Assembly (NCBI GenBank): GCA_963751455.1
Contig: CAVVUN010000009.1
Location: forward strand, 224,001 to 288,000
Direction: 5' to 3'
Source: Nitrospirota bacterium
GTDB lineage: Bacteria; Nitrospirota; UBA9217
DNA length: 64,000 bases
In this document: positions 57,420 through 63,581 of the stretch, piece by piece
Numbering within the stretch: position 1 is the stretch's first letter
Layout: each line of letters begins with the position of its first letter
Program-made: the position numbers and the translations under genes
The notes under the pieces: generated by a model
Databases searched by the model: none
What the model was told of the DNA's origin: nothing
What the model saw: the letters and a program-made list of their open reading frames with translations, nothing else

Positions 57420-57569
57420 CTTTGTGTTATGAAAAGCGAACACGTAATCAGGCCATTCAGGCCGTGAAAGAATTCGGTGGGAACCGGCGGTTTATCGTTT
57501 GATAGACCAGCCGATATGAAGGAGTGCCGTCAGGACGTTACGGGCTTTGGAGGAGGGCCATTGGCTCAT
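57420..57569 (-). pseudogene. hicA: HicA toxin pseudogene
   Basis: Manual translation MSQWPSSKARNVLTALLHIGWSIKR*TAGSHRIL..PDYVFAFH; premature TAA and truncated 3' end. Confidence 0.75.
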
Positions 57570-57766
57570 GCAGGCAGCGCAAAAAGCTCATCAAGTTCGG
57601 GAATGTTCTCCCCGTGATCCAGCCGATCTGCTATGATACGCAGTGCCAGTGCTTCAACTTTGGCAATTGCTTCTTCTCGTGTCTTTCCGTAAGCTAAAAC
57701 ACCCGGAAGATCAGAAACCTCGGCAATCCAACGACCATCTTCTTCTTTTTCAATATCTATCTTCAT
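57566..57766 (-). CDS. hicB: HicB-family antitoxin
   Basis: EEDGRWIAEVSDLPGVLAYGKTREEA; ATGA overlap with hicA. Confidence 0.85.
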   Translation of the reverse strand: MKIDIEKEEDGRWIAEVSDLPGVLAYGKTREEAIAKVEALALRIIADRLDHGENIPELDELFALPA

Positions 57767-57878
57767 TCTATTCTCCTCTGATGATAAATTTATCTGAATA
57801 TGGCGCTGATTGCAAGTCTAAATTTATCGTGGGCGGAGCGGCTTTTACACCTGGCTCGATCCGGATGAGACGACAAAA

Positions 57879-58460
57879 TTACGATTTAACCGCATAAGTT
57901 CCCTTGGGACTTAATGCACGCTTGTAATCTGAAATCGAGTGATATCCGTTCGCCGCAAGAATCAGGTCGTAACGCTGCCCATTTTGGGTGAAATCTTCTC
58001 TGGTGTAATCAATGACCTGGTCTGCGCCAATCGAGCGCACCATATCCAAATTCCTCGTACTGCACACGCCAGTCACTTTAGCTCCGAACGATTTGGCAAT
58101 CTGTACCGCAAACGTACCAACACCACCAGACGCACCATTAATCAAAACCTTTTGCCCTGGCTGAATCTGTCCTTTATCGCGAAGACCATGTAGGGCGGTG
58201 ACTGCCGCCACAGGTACGACCGCTGCTTCCTCGAACGATATATTGGCCGGTTTCAACGCCAATGCATTTTCACGGCACATACATACTCGGCAAAACCGCC
58301 CAAACCGCACTCGAATAAGTCCCCGAATACCTCATCACCCGGCTGAAACTGCCTTACGTTTCTGCCTACTACTTCCACCCGCCCCGCTATGTCAGATCCG
58401 AGTATCTTGTATTTTGGTTTTAGAAGCCCAGAGTGCAGGCGGGCCAAGAACGGGTCAGTT
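57879..58460 (-). pseudogene. Internal fragment of an NAD(P)-dependent MDR oxidoreductase
   Basis: ILGSDIAG.VE, INGASGGVGTFAVQIAK; both ends missing; bounded by a REP at 58462. Confidence 0.8.
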
Positions 58461-58612
58461 GGTAGGTTGGGTAGAACGAAGTGAAACCCAACGCTTTTTA
58501 GTTTTCAGATTACTCACCAATTGCCGAAACATTAAATCTGTCGGGTTTCGCAGCAGCTCTACCCGACCTACGAACTAATTTGTCAACATCAAAGATTCGA
58601 CCCCATGACCAC

Positions 58613-58669
58613 GCATGACCACGTTAATCACCTTGTCCGATGTCAAGGGCAATCACTTTCTTGTTACGT
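58613..58669 (-). other. Degenerate integron attC site after the 991-aa cassette
   Basis: Minus strand ACGTAAC ... CCTTG/CAAGG hairpin ... GTCATGC (GTT changed to GTC); GTAAC is complementary to this cassette's start GTTAC. Confidence 0.5.
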
Positions 58670-58682
58670 TATTCTTACTACA

Positions 58683-61658
58683 TTAATTCTCAGGCTTCTT
58701 GACTGCTAAAAAATGAACGCCAGGTTCTGGCGGCACTAACCACGCGCCAATGGCCTCACCCTCTGTTGGTTGATAGCGATATGACTGGTGAGATTGAGCT
58801 GATGCCCCAATCTTCCAGCCATAACCCATCGATTCAAGCGTAAGCAACGGAGAAAACACGGCGTCATCTGTATCAACTAGACTGCGTCCGTTAAGATGGA
58901 ACGGGGCAATGCCTACTTGAGTGGCTTGTTCAGCCGCCGATAAGTTTCTCTTGCTTACCAGAGTGACATTTCGAGCGCGGAGTGATTTTAGCGCATCTGC
59001 TATTTCAAATTCCAATGTCTTAGGCGACTGTTGGAGACCATTTGCTTTTATGTGGGTTGTTTTACTTAACAGCAACCTTCTCATATGCAACAAATCGACC
59101 TGGGATTCGTTAACAAAGTCAAAGAGAATATTTAGTGGAATGTCACGCGAGTAAGGAAGCAACCCAATTTCGATATACGTTTGCTGTTCATTTTGAATTG
59201 CCGGAATGCAATTGGCCGCCTCGGTAAGTAATTGCTCCATAACTCCATGACCAGGACTTACACAGCCCACTCCTGAAGCAGGAACCAGAAGGAACTTTCC
59301 ACTCGCTAAAAAAGATTTCGCCTCAGTAATGAGAAATTTCATAACATCATTGGGCAACCATGAAGCATACCCCATCGCCATAAAGCGATGTCGTCCCGTT
59401 TTCGATTTCAATTCAGACCCGAGCGTTAATAGGTACCCAGCACCCCAAGGCCCAAACCAATTTCCATCGACCATGTGAAGAAACTTTCCAGATTTGGTTG
59501 GTCCTTTCCACAACAATAAGGTGAAATCTGCATATAAAGACCACAGTCTAAGCGCCTGCCTGATGTCCTCCAGTGATCGCACTTCGATTGTTACATTCAA
59601 TGAGTGTGGAAACGCTTGCAAGTTTCGGAGAATTTGTGCAAAGCAACCGCGGCCCCAATAGTCATAATCGAGCGCTGCCGCATTATAGTCATCTGCGGTA
59701 TCTTCCCACCATTTGACAACAGGGGCTACGGTCAATGCGTTTGCCTCATGTAAACTTAAAATGGGTTCTTCGCTAGGGTTTTCTATTTCTGAATCGCCAA
59801 GATAACGAGAAAAGCCTCTCGCTCGTTCAAGGGTCTCCTTAAAGACGTTTGGCCCTTGTCCTATGAGCGATATGTCAATTATTCGTTTGCGAAGTTCGAT
59901 GTTTGCTTCGACCCGCTTTATATAGTTTTCCTTGATTTTGCATAGCTTTTCATCTTCAGTCAAGCATTCGCCCAATTTAGTCATTGCGCTTTGAAGGCTA
60001 TCGTTCTGTCCGAGCTGTGAAGAATAATTAGCGATCAATCCTAATATTTCTAAATGAATATCCATTGGCACACTAATGCGCCCGGCAACCAAATGATATG
60101 CTTCTTGCGCCAATTCTAAAGCACGCTCAGTTTGCCCTTTGTCTGCAAGTGCCTCTGCCAAATTCATCTTAGCCATAAAGGAAGAATCGACCTCGGAGGC
60201 AAGATCTACGGCTATTTCAGCTTTTTCCACAGCTGTAGCTAAATCGCCTAACTGCCGCGAGATCACAGAAACCAACTGTGTAGTAGCGAACGTAATAGGC
60301 TCAGTCTCTGGTGACACAGCAATGTTCAAGAGTGATTTTGCTTTCTGTAGCGCCTCCTCAAGTCGTCCAGCTTGAAAGTTAACCAAAGCCACCGTGTAAA
60401 GTACGCCGGGTAGAAAGGCCTTACGTGTATCTGTTGAAACTTTGTCAGCTAAACGCAATGCCGCTTCAGACGCGGCTACTGCTGTACTATGACGTTTGGC
60501 GTGTGATGAATTATTTGCAACATTAATCAATTGCCCTGCAATACGCAGGGAGAGAAAGCTGTTACGCGCCGAAGCTTCCAACTCATGAATTCGAGATATA
60601 GCCGCATCTTCATCGCCTGACTTCACTGCCCAGTGAATCCCAGCGTTAAGGGCTGCTTGAAAAACCTCACCGTCAAGCATATCGGGATTGCGCTTTGCAT
60701 ATGTCTCAGCTAAGTTGAGATGCTCCTCGGCCTCACTAGAGCGGTTCGCATTGCACAGAAGATGTACGTACTCTGAACGGGCGACGCATAGTTGTTCGTC
60801 ACAACGCTCGATATTTGCAGGTAGGCTGGCCAATGCAATTGCTTCCAGATATGCAGATTCGGCCCCGTGAAAATCGCGCTTTTCCTCTAGATACGCACCA
60901 CGCGCTCGATGGTACATCACTAAAACGGGCACTTCCGTAATATCTTTATGCAAGGACTCAAGCCGTTGAAAGTAATATCCGCGATCACCTATGCCACCTC
61001 GGGCAGACGAAAGTAAGGATAGGCCAATTAGTACTTCAGCCTGTAAATGGACGAGCTTCTCAGTCTCAGCTATCACAAGTGCCTCTTCCATTGCCTCAAA
61101 TGCCTTACGTCTTTTGTCTTGATTGGCTAGTTCGGTCGCTCGCTTCAATAAAGAGCGTATTTTTGACTCAATTTGATTTGGCGATTTGGAAATTCCAAAT
61201 AGAGAAGATAGCTTCTCCGTCGTTAATTTTTCCAGTCGTTCCCATAGACCGTCAATTCCAAGGGCCTCGACACGAACGTCTGGGTTCACAGCGCTCAGCC
61301 GCGCTAATGTCTTTGCTGTAAGGTGCCCAACCTTGCCATCAGCGCTATTGTGAATAAACGTCCATACTTTGAGAGAACTACCAAGAGTGTCTTTTGCCTT
61401 ATTGAAGTCGGCTGCGACCTTGGAGGCCGTGCTACTATCAGTAGTGAGGCTAGGCGGGGCATAGAGTTGATAAACTCTTCCTTCTTTCAATGCCAACCCG
61501 TCGATGCCACCATCACCTCTTGTTACACGAATTGCCAAGAAGCAGTCTTCGCCGTGAAGAGCAATCGCAATTTTTTCAAACCAGTTTTGGAAGGCTTCCC
61601 CGTGAACACTGCGGAACTCTTCTCGATATTTAAGTTTAATGCCTTGTTCTAAGTCCAT
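58683..61658 (-). CDS. 991-aa protein: N-terminal restriction-endonuclease-like domain, TPR-like array, unknown C-terminal domain
   Basis: AFQNWF...GDGGIDG...YQLYAP...WTFIHN; about 420 aa of Ala/Glu/Leu-rich helical repeats; GGAG/GCGG upstream. Confidence 0.7.
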   Translation of the reverse strand: MDLEQGIKLKYREEFRSVHGEAFQNWFEKIAIALHGEDCFLAIRVTRGDGGIDGLALKEGRVYQLYAPPSLTTDSSTASKVAADFNKAKDTLGSSLKVWTFIHNSADGKVGHLTAKTLARLSAVNPDVRVEALGIDGLWERLEKLTTEKLSSLFGISKSPNQIESKIRSLLKRATELANQDKRRKAFEAMEEALVIAETEKLVHLQAEVLIGLSLLSSARGGIGDRGYYFQRLESLHKDITEVPVLVMYHRARGAYLEEKRDFHGAESAYLEAIALASLPANIERCDEQLCVARSEYVHLLCNANRSSEAEEHLNLAETYAKRNPDMLDGEVFQAALNAGIHWAVKSGDEDAAISRIHELEASARNSFLSLRIAGQLINVANNSSHAKRHSTAVAASEAALRLADKVSTDTRKAFLPGVLYTVALVNFQAGRLEEALQKAKSLLNIAVSPETEPITFATTQLVSVISRQLGDLATAVEKAEIAVDLASEVDSSFMAKMNLAEALADKGQTERALELAQEAYHLVAGRISVPMDIHLEILGLIANYSSQLGQNDSLQSAMTKLGECLTEDEKLCKIKENYIKRVEANIELRKRIIDISLIGQGPNVFKETLERARGFSRYLGDSEIENPSEEPILSLHEANALTVAPVVKWWEDTADDYNAAALDYDYWGRGCFAQILRNLQAFPHSLNVTIEVRSLEDIRQALRLWSLYADFTLLLWKGPTKSGKFLHMVDGNWFGPWGAGYLLTLGSELKSKTGRHRFMAMGYASWLPNDVMKFLITEAKSFLASGKFLLVPASGVGCVSPGHGVMEQLLTEAANCIPAIQNEQQTYIEIGLLPYSRDIPLNILFDFVNESQVDLLHMRRLLLSKTTHIKANGLQQSPKTLEFEIADALKSLRARNVTLVSKRNLSAAEQATQVGIAPFHLNGRSLVDTDDAVFSPLLTLESMGYGWKIGASAQSHQSYRYQPTEGEAIGAWLVPPEPGVHFLAVKKPEN

Positions 61659-61740: not shown

Positions 61741-61799
61741 GGGTAACATGCGGATGTGGGGCGTGATTCTCAACGACCCTTACGATCCGCTTGTTATGC
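61741..61799 (-). other. Integron attC site (59 bp)
   Basis: Minus strand GCATAAC-aagcg-GATCGTAA...CCACATC-cgcat-GTTACCC. The opposite strand folds with an extrahelical G, and the upstream gene's TAA stop lies in R''. Confidence 0.85.
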
Positions 61800-63581
61800 C
61801 TGCTCGATAAATAGCTCTGAACCTCTTTTTATAGATCGGTTGAACATAATACCGATCTCGCCGGAATGAGCCTCGTCAACGCTTTTATCGTCTATTTGTA
61901 TAGACTTCACAACAGCTACCGCGTAGCTTGAATTCTTTTTTACAATTATCTTCATGTTTCTTGTGATATGAATTCTATTGATGTTTTTTACGATCGCAAT
62001 TTTCCCATCCTGATAGTATTCTTCGGGAACGCCAATGGAAATAAGGTTTTCGGGTTTTAATTCAATTAATCCCACTTGAAACAATTTATTGCGGACATGT
62101 TCCTTAGTTATTATGCCGTCTTCAACCATGAAGTATGCTTTGTACAACTCAAAAGTTGTTAATAGGCCACGCTTATCCAAAAGCGCATCTCCTATCTGGA
62201 CGTCTGAAAAAGGAGGATTAAGCCTGCTGTGAGGAGGTATATAACGCTGATGATTAACTATATACAGCCCAAAAACATCAAACCGATTTCTCTGCTCGGC
62301 TCTTCGAAATCTAATTTTGGATATCTGTGAGCAATCCTTGTCTGTGGATGTGCCACTGATGCCCTTAACCTCGATAACAAGAAGTCCTTTTTCATTTTCT
62401 ACTTGCAAATCCTCTTCCTTAATTTCTAATTCCAACTCGTCCATGTTTACGACGGATTCAAAGCCTAACCAGTTAAGAAAATATTCGACTGCCTTTACAA
62501 GCTTATCGCCGGTTTCAAATATAAGTTCATGAAGAAAGTGATATTTAATTCTATTTTCACTTAGCAATCTATCCAAATCATGAATATCTTTTTGATATTT
62601 CTCTTCGAGATTTTTCTTAGCCTCAATAAGGGCATTTTCACCAGGGAGTAAATATTCTCCACTTTTTAGCCATCCGAATTGACCATGAAATGGAAACAAT
62701 TCTGGGTAAATTTCGGGAAGATAAACGTTGAGTAGGTCAGAAAGAAATTTTCCCTTATTCTTGATATCGGGAAAAACTAAAATCAATCCTTCGTCATAAA
62801 AGTGACTAAAACTAATTATTTCCCCATTATCATTGACTAACAATGGCAAGAAAGATTTCATTTTCACATTCTTTCCATCTTTCCATTCTGTCGGATGGGA
62901 AAAAACTATATTATAGGTTGAGCCATCCAGATATTTTTCAAGAAGTGGAGACAATTTAGTCTCACTCTCCGGAAGTTTTATTTTATTACCAGACTTATTT
63001 TTCGAGGATGGTAAGCCACTATAGAAATCAAGATTTGAATATTCTTTTTCGCTCGTAACATTAGCATAACGGTCATTAATTTCTACGAATTGATAAGAAA
63101 CGCTCTCTTCTTGAGGAGAGAAGCATATGACGACAGACTCTTTTTTTAGTATTTCTGCAATTTCTTTGGCGATGACATAAATAGACAGAGGCCTCGGATC
63201 GAAAATCGTTTGCGGATATTTGCAAAGTAGAGCATGTGCTTTTTTGTCCTTTGTTCGGTCTATGCTGTGATCATTATCTTTATACTCAATACTTTTCTCT
63301 CTAGTCATATCAAAAATGACTATGTCAAACTCGTGAAGATTTGCAGGAATTCGATAATTGAGCAATAAGAAATGTTCAGAATGGCGTTCGTTATTTGGAA
63401 CTTTTACGCAGGTTCCGGTACTTGCCACCTCATGCTTAAAAAGGTTTGAACTTAGAAGCTTCGAGACGTCATCATCAGTATCAAATAAACATATCAATGG
63501 CCTTTCATGAGGAGATGCGCTTTGAACCTGAGCATCTTTTATTGTTCCCAAAGTGTCTTTCTTTTTTTTCGTTTTAAACAT
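61794..63581 (-). CDS. 595-aa protein: unknown N-terminal domain, coiled coil, PD-(D/E)XK nuclease, C-terminal EF-Tu-domain-II-like beta-barrel
   Basis: LGF...EEDLQV...VIEVKG; tail VKSIQIDDKSVDEAHSGEIGI; AT-rich. Confidence 0.7.
   Translation of the reverse strand: MFKTKKKKDTLGTIKDAQVQSASPHERPLICLFDTDDDVSKLLSSNLFKHEVASTGTCVKVPNNERHSEHFLLLNYRIPANLHEFDIVIFDMTREKSIEYKDNDHSIDRTKDKKAHALLCKYPQTIFDPRPLSIYVIAKEIAEILKKESVVICFSPQEESVSYQFVEINDRYANVTSEKEYSNLDFYSGLPSSKNKSGNKIKLPESETKLSPLLEKYLDGSTYNIVFSHPTEWKDGKNVKMKSFLPLLVNDNGEIISFSHFYDEGLILVFPDIKNKGKFLSDLLNVYLPEIYPELFPFHGQFGWLKSGEYLLPGENALIEAKKNLEEKYQKDIHDLDRLLSENRIKYHFLHELIFETGDKLVKAVEYFLNWLGFESVVNMDELELEIKEEDLQVENEKGLLVIEVKGISGTSTDKDCSQISKIRFRRAEQRNRFDVFGLYIVNHQRYIPPHSRLNPPFSDVQIGDALLDKRGLLTTFELYKAYFMVEDGIITKEHVRNKLFQVGLIELKPENLISIGVPEEYYQDGKIAIVKNINRIHITRNMKIIVKKNSSYAVAVVKSIQIDDKSVDEAHSGEIGIMFNRSIKRGSELFIEQA

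Follow-up and report, generated by a model that had tools for sequence, protein, structure and literature searches.

Anatomy of the gene

The window, by which we mean the whole 64,000-nucleotide stretch analysed here (contig CAVVUN010000009.1 of a Nitrospirota bacterium), carries on its minus strand an intact open reading frame (ORF) at 58683-61658, which encodes a protein of 991 amino acids with zero internal stops. The protein consists of a nuclease-like N-terminal domain, a solenoid of tetratricopeptide repeats (TPR) and a Trp/Gly-rich C-terminal domain that we call the tail, and it belongs to a family in which very different N-termini are joined to a constant TPR-plus-tail core. The gene and its parts are the following.

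58683..61658, minus strand: whole gene, 991 amino acids, restriction endonuclease (REase)-like effector, TPR solenoid and conserved tail (ORF and structural model)
61194..61658, minus strand: N-terminal domain, probably PD-(D/E)XK-like, amino acids 1-155, related to the N-termini of ABC-three-component effectors
59865..61175, minus strand: TPR alpha-solenoid, amino acids 162-598 (Pfam TPR_2/TPR_MalT/TPR_12, model, fold matches to TPR proteins)
58686..59753, minus strand: conserved tail domain, amino acids 636-991 (conservation and model; without Pfam or PDB assignment)
58947..59135, minus strand: helical hairpin of the tail, amino acids 842-904, weakly resembling the C-terminal half of DUF6236

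All the motifs listed in a preliminary description of this DNA are found in the ORF: FQ..F (residues 23-27), GDGGIDG (48-54), YQLYAP (63-68) and WTFIHN (99-104) in the N-terminal domain, and DYWGRGCF (666-673), LWKGP (716-720) and WFGPWGAGY (734-742) in the tail. The TPR-like array and the Trp/Gly-rich C-terminal domain that it described are there as well, and a pattern scan of the protein agrees with it that a Walker A motif is absent. In an AlphaFold model of the whole protein, built with 33 homologues (predicted local distance difference test, pLDDT, 81; predicted template modelling score, pTM, 0.67), an alpha/beta domain (1-155) is followed by helical hairpins (162-598) and, from residue 636, by the tail. 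Pfam recognizes only TPR in the protein (amino acids 391-566), and fold searches with the whole model return only TPR proteins; among the best of them are Rap, PlcR and NprR, regulators that sense peptides, as generic TPR matches. The ORF is a real gene, as relatives of the tail exist (41 proteins among 7996 scored candidates, at 29-100% identity) and share the quoted motifs.

Exchange of N-terminal domains on a constant core

A profile of the tail, built from 30 sequences and searched against 1.84 billion cluster representatives at E-values up to 0.001, matches 236 representatives, and our survey of the family draws on 150 of these. Among the 150, the tail is always C-terminal in long proteins. 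Searched for alone, it proves to carry many different N-termini: the 112 full-length relatives (proteins of 850 amino acids or more, pooled from the tail searches including those 150) fall into 41 BLAST clusters by their N-termini, with 39 proteins sharing the type of the window protein. Pfam names for the N-termini are Mrr_cat, DUF4365, TIR_2, SEFIR, DUF4062, PNP_UDP_1, Pkinase and Trypsin_2; HNH_2 and a PGAP1-like alpha/beta hydrolase match below the cut-off, and the labels transmembrane, helical, Cap4-like and helix-turn-helix (HTH)-like were assigned by eye. On a quick IQ-TREE phylogeny of the tail only (117 rows, after removal of 16 close relatives from 133), the 21 N-terminal labels require 49 changes, as compared to a minimum of 20 and a mean of 82 for shuffled labels, and well-supported sister pairs bear different effectors (PNP/SEFIR, Mrr/trypsin, hydrolase/helical).

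Effector swapping on a constant core is the feature by which TPR-GreA/B-C-PIN (TGP) systems were recognized (PMC8195603), and it has been described for Lamassu (PMC12663957) and Avs7 (PMC13581612). Because many immune-type enzymes interchange on the TPR-plus-tail core, the 991-residue protein very probably serves in defence of some kind, and the defence-type role proposed in the preliminary description gains backing from the swaps across the family.

The N-termini also bear on a different explanation, according to which TPR plus tail form a general ligand-sensing scaffold that is not aimed at phage (a peptide-responsive regulator, a stress module or an anti-plasmid module) and the N-terminal domain of the window protein binds DNA instead of cutting it. 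Such a scaffold would fit the short HTH-like N-termini on six tree rows, with a divergent MvdD-type ATP-grasp gene at three such loci (L012, L015 and L017), and the presence of Rap, PlcR and NprR among the TPR fold matches, generic as these are. It would also fit the lack of the canonical catalytic Lys in the N-terminal domain (see below). However, TIR, SEFIR, DUF4062, PNP, HNH, trypsin and several REases on one core make up a known immune-system pattern, and the two Asp and the Gln of the N-terminal motif are invariant and common to ABC-three-component effectors. We consider a general scaffold quite improbable.

A defence protein of the kind that we favour would work without a nucleoside triphosphatase (NTPase). 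The absence of an NTPase, noted earlier for the protein itself, extends by Pfam to the relatives scanned, which comprise 44 and 12 long proteins: no NTPase family is matched in them, and no NACHT, NB-ARC or AAA domain is matched in them or in the window protein. The Walker A pattern occurs as five scattered matches in 4 of the 112 full-length relatives. A search for fusions of 1050-2995 amino acids gave two matches, neither annotated as an NTPase, which is weak evidence. PADLOC and NCBIfam returned no system-level match for the window protein or the relatives scanned.

Two relatives (L001:3774-6752 and L029/L030:1582-4682) are split into two ORFs inside the TPR region, by a broken gene or an assembly error.

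The tail domain and its stand-alone form

A model of the isolated tail, built with 57 sequences, is confident (pLDDT 88, pTM 0.88) and shows an alpha/beta core (636-815) with a long beta insertion, followed by the helical hairpin. Its signature comprises D666-x-W-G-R-G671, W717-K-G, G739-x-G-Y742, G798-C799 and a W973-L-x-P-P end. The domain, the third and unassigned one of the preliminary description, still lacks a Pfam or PDB assignment. Pfam applied to 30 tail sequences at E-values up to 1 gave no GreA/B-C, PIN or other enzyme family and no assignment, Foldseek gave zero PDB matches at E-values up to 0.001, and the ESM Atlas gave no usable match with the fused tail. The best match of a wide structural search (Z 5.6, root-mean-square deviation 4.8, 66 residues) covers the helical hairpin only; this search hardly probed the alpha/beta core, and the absence of a PDB match does not demonstrate a new fold. 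A homodimer prediction for the tail scored 0.00, a value that speaks neither for nor against assembly.

The tail also occurs alone, in proteins of about 390 amino acids, of which 25 were known after a second search; this stand-alone family (P0146, P0162, P0166, P0173, P0174, P0178 and P0187-P0206) is without a Pfam name. The stand-alone forms are a single clade, with a support of 100 in the Shimodaira-Hasegawa-like approximate likelihood ratio test (SH-aLRT), and they keep DxWxRG, GxGY and the terminal W-L-x-P-P; D666, W668, R670, G671, G739, G741, Y742, P769, G787, P793 and W973 are common to fused and stand-alone forms. In the stand-alone proteins, the helical hairpin is followed by a Gly/Ala-rich hydrophobic segment that is absent from the window protein. 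By the highest 19-residue Kyte-Doolittle mean within the last 170 amino acids, 12 of the 25 stand-alone proteins reach 1.6 or more, as against none of 106 fused proteins (0.94 in the window protein).

On the part of the protein that senses the invader, our interpretation departs from precedent. The preliminary description had likened the TPR array to those that recognise phage proteins in other systems, and a related explanation retains the anti-phage role but has the TPR solenoid do the sensing, on the pattern of Avs and Dsr1, while the tail is a cap or assembly domain that replaces the STAND NTPase. Most Avs families, and also Dsr1/DSR2, indeed sense through TPR-like repeats (PMC13581612; PMC11850899). 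In the family studied here the TPR region is also less conserved than the tail, as expected of diversifying sensors: with a TPR profile built from the close clade, 58 of the 112 members are matched at E below 1e-5. Against this, at least 25 stand-alone proteins carry the tail without TPR and with its signature residues kept, although a separate TPR partner encoded near them is conceivable. The tail core at 636-815 is the most conserved region in comparison with 31 of 32 relatives, and because the tail is the most conserved part and also exists without TPR, sequence comparison suggests that it, and not the repeats, forms the core module. Recognition of phage proteins by the TPR array stays hypothetical, and a TPR sensor capped by the tail seems unlikely to us.

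A further explanation makes the tail a cryptic enzyme that acts as the first-line effector, as the PIN domain does in TGP proteins, with the N-terminal domain as a back-up killing module. The fused forms do keep polar residues (D666 in 96%, R670 in 92%, D/E711, K718 in 97%, E779 in 91% and C799 in 97%), there are members without an obvious N-terminal enzyme, and the architecture parallels that of TGP. Like the window protein, TGP proteins such as E. coli Agp are chains of about 1000 residues whose N-terminal effector varies (REase, HNH, PNPase, TIR and others; PMC8195603; bioRxiv 10.1101/2024.11.07.622273) and which otherwise have TPR, a constant C-terminal module and no NTPase. The constant module of the window protein, however, matches neither GreA/B-C nor PIN by Pfam, and is instead a Trp/Gly-rich alpha/beta domain with a helical hairpin, found also alone with a hydrophobic segment. 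Moreover, K718, C799 and D711 are not conserved in the stand-alone clade, the tail matches neither PIN nor another enzyme family by Pfam, and Trp, Gly and Pro account for most of the invariant positions. We regard an enzymatic tail as the least probable of the explanations considered. A PIN-like assignment as such is unsupported by the sequence, which has no Pfam match and whose invariant residues are DxWxRG and further Trp, Gly and Pro.

Relation to DUF6236

The stand-alone family provides a partial link, at the sequence level, between the tail and DUF6236 (PF19749). Its C-terminal half aligns with a DUF6236 profile built from 6 sequences over 142 columns (Prob 94.5%, E 8e-8; reversed control 0.5%), and the part in common is the helical hairpin with the hydrophobic segment. 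With a stand-alone member as query, the ESM Atlas returned DUF6236 clusters at 0.97, with a recognition of 1633, below the level for strong evidence. The link is only partial because the fused tail reaches a Prob of just 35% and the N-terminal halves of the two families do not align. Neither fused nor stand-alone members reach the cut-off of the Pfam DUF6236 model. A full-length DUF6236 reading of the tail is not supported by the sequence, as the N-terminal halves are unaligned and DxWxRG is a signature of the tail family that is absent from DUF6236.

The DefensePredictor supplement lists DUF6236 proteins among the novel defence genes that it predicts (PMC13092281). Our literature search found no paper that names DUF6236 in its main text, and the supplements of the Avs paper contain no DUF6236, PF19749 or WGRG.

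Two further proteins match the tail profile weakly and resemble DUF6236, one without a Pfam match (L060:1216-2463) and one below the Pfam cut-off (L061:1345-2367), hinting at a wider superfamily that shares the hairpin region.

The N-terminal domain

Residues 1-160 match plasmid proteins annotated "ABC-three component system protein" (tblastn, 21 records, 25-34% identity among the 20 listed, best E 4e-14). The two matches that were inspected are each the first gene of a three-gene ABC-three-component operon. All 37 sequences in an alignment of this N-terminal type share five residues, D49, D53, Q64, K80 and W99. The identity level and the shared invariant residues support the likeness to ABC-three-component effector domains that had been suggested before. 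In an alignment to the Mrr-like N-termini of the family (Prob 77%, E 2e-5), D49, D53 and Q64 fall on G-D-x-G-x-D...QCK. The domain therefore likely has a PD-(D/E)XK-like fold, judged by these alignments; a profile of it has no match among PDB sequences. The nuclease activity proposed earlier is at present an inference, with Tyr66 at the position of the canonical catalytic Lys. The invariant K80 may substitute for that Lys.

Compared to a Lamassu-like ABC-three-component effector of the middle-component-6 type (e.g. WP_041377675.1), the window protein has in common the N-terminal 155 or so amino acids, including the same D, D, Q, K, W and N. The C-terminal domain of such effectors (PADLOC PDC-M68A, amino acids 163-301) is replaced by TPR and tail, in keeping with the absence of a PDC-M68A match in the 991-residue protein, and the window gene stands beside unrelated genes, without an ABC ATPase or middle component.

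A model for the protein and its known counterparts

We propose that the protein is a single-gene, NTPase-free anti-phage sensor-effector, with the tail as predicted trigger module and an N-terminal domain that would cut cellular DNA once released; we put the chances of this reading at about even. At rest, the TPR solenoid would hold the effector domains away from each other or block them. The trigger would come from the phage and would most likely be one of its conserved proteins; it would bind the Trp/Gly-rich alpha/beta core of the tail, and the TPR arm would relay the release to the effector. Several copies might thereupon come together and create an active site from their nuclease domains, just as Lamassu LmuA is activated by oligomerisation (PMC12663957). 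Degradation of host and phage DNA would abort the infection. Where the tail stands alone, its core would instead drive the hydrophobic segment into the membrane.

A number of points weigh against this model. Ligand binding, oligomer assembly and protection from phage are steps that we infer, and the conservation of the tail is equally compatible with a structural or a catalytic role. The sensors of most Avs families and of Dsr1/DSR2 are, as mentioned, repeats. Tyr66 occupies the place of the catalytic Lys of the QxK motif, and the N-terminal profile does not align with two other REase groups (Prob below 1%). Several family members have a short HTH-like N-terminus or none. Defence-type Pfam matches (methylases, ABC-3C CTD10, TOTE primase, CHAT, AbiEi, MazF) lie near only 8 of 27 loci, a count of hand-picked neighbours without a background control, and some loci of the family sit among housekeeping genes. 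As to DUF6236, the link is weak for the fused tail and does not extend to the N-terminal halves, and a cloned DUF6236 protein, the distant relative WP_097421955.1, was non-defensive in a 24-coliphage screen (PMC13092281).

Single-gene systems of effector, TPR and constant domain without an NTPase are already known from TGP and Dsr, and the kind is not new. Dsr1 and DSR2 are likewise single genes that combine an effector with helical repeats and sense a phage structural protein, and the absence of a STAND NTPase is stated for Dsr1 (PMC13581612, PMC11850899). They differ in their SIR2 effector and in having their trigger-binding repeats at the C-terminus, whereas the window protein has central repeats and a globular tail; no SIR2, PADLOC Dsr or NCBIfam Dsr profile matches it. 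Avs and other STAND NLR-like receptors (PMC13581612) resemble it in their swappable N-terminal effectors and TPR repeats, and differ in their STAND NTPase, missing here and, by Pfam, in the relatives scanned, and in the position of the TPR, which is not C-terminal in the window protein. What may be new is the constant tail domain with its stand-alone form, neither of which we found in Pfam, NCBIfam, PADLOC or the papers searched. No paper on an effector-TPR-tail architecture was found by titles and the starts of abstracts, with subscription papers and bioRxiv supplements outside the search.

Bacterial receptors that sense proteins mostly do so, as far as they are known, through repeat domains and are switched by an NTPase. 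A bolder and rather unlikely version of our proposal is that the tail is a pattern-recognition domain, remotely tied to DUF6236, that comes in two layouts: as a lone sensor-pore with a hydrophobic segment, and fused through TPR to at least ten interchangeable killing enzymes, without the segment. If this were true, the family would be NLR-like receptors that dispense with a nucleotide switch and sense through a domain other than repeats. Its constant core undergoes natural effector swaps, and its tail is confidently modelled, has no clear counterpart among known structures and also exists alone. The family thereby makes two questions testable, namely by what means the ATP switch is replaced and in which domain the invader is recognised. 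For DUF6236, whose predicted role in defence is still to be validated, it offers a lead as well.

Genomic context and distribution

In accordance with its earlier description as a stand-alone gene, an all-against-all comparison of ORFs across 36 loci revealed no general partner gene. The sole neighbour family found in three distinct loci is the divergent MvdD-type ATP-grasp gene, beside members with short N-termini, in head-to-head pairing (L012:6298-7704, L015:289-1332 and L017:342-1385). Because L015 and L017 do not share the subclade of L012, the pairing with HTH-like members may have arisen twice. Integrase, transposase, conjugation or ArdC genes lie near 9 of the 27 loci, again among hand-picked neighbours without a background control.

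The distribution of the family is rare and patchy, which speaks for the proposed defence role. None of 63 genomes of the same taxonomic family contains it, and 401 genomes of the phylum contain two full-length members; in the phylum of a relative's genome (G302), the only member among 401 genomes is that of G302 itself. No relative of the fused or the stand-alone form was found in viral contigs, and plasmids gave matches to the N-terminal domain only, and none for a stand-alone member.

The surroundings of the gene contain two further features.

61741..61799, minus strand: 59-bp attC closing the upstream 595-amino-acid gene (genome-derived attC model, 36.9 bits, E 5e-9)
58463..58615, no strand assigned: repeated palindromic sequence downstream of the gene, at the expected place of its own attC (no attC match)

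The preliminary description had supposed a mobilised cassette. In its favour, an attC lies directly upstream, and the 991-residue gene begins 83 bp after it; an attC of its own was not found downstream at E-values up to 1 with filters off, by a model that is limited to the 57-61 bp sites of this genome, having been built from 13 other attC-like sites. The attC array, which has no integrase nearby, ends with this gene, which may be a cassette that has lost its attC. The palindromic repeat in the place of the missing site is presumably REP-like. On positions 55000-70000 the model finds three sites, the other two at about 65422-65480 and 66519-66571; at the loci of 34 relatives it finds none, being specific to the window genome. 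That genome has IntI-like genes, identified by eye, on other contigs, along with many attC-like sites of 57-61 bp, and the closest BLAST relative of the attC at 61741-61799, on contig C1, has an IntI-like gene at a distance of about 3 kb. Contigs C1, C2, C3 and C12 have several IntI-like genes, some of them interrupted, and many dispersed attC clusters. Phage defences carried by mobile integrons have been reported (10.1101/2024.07.02.601719).

The upstream gene at 61794-63581 (minus strand, 595 amino acids, 36% guanine plus cytosine) has no Pfam, PADLOC or NCBIfam match and is a candidate defence cassette. We take the EDL...IEVK motif near its C-terminus to be REase-like in appearance. The rest of the array (63737-67393 when the numbering of the window is continued) holds a frameshifted DUF772/DDE transposase, a lipoprotein-like gene of 293 amino acids without a Pfam match, and a HEPN_AbiU2 gene, the last of which favours the proposed anti-phage role of the 991-residue protein. 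Downstream, at 57566-58310 on the minus strand, a 5'-truncated fragment of a zinc-type dehydrogenase gene and a HicB-like gene of 66 amino acids suggest a decayed insertion junction.

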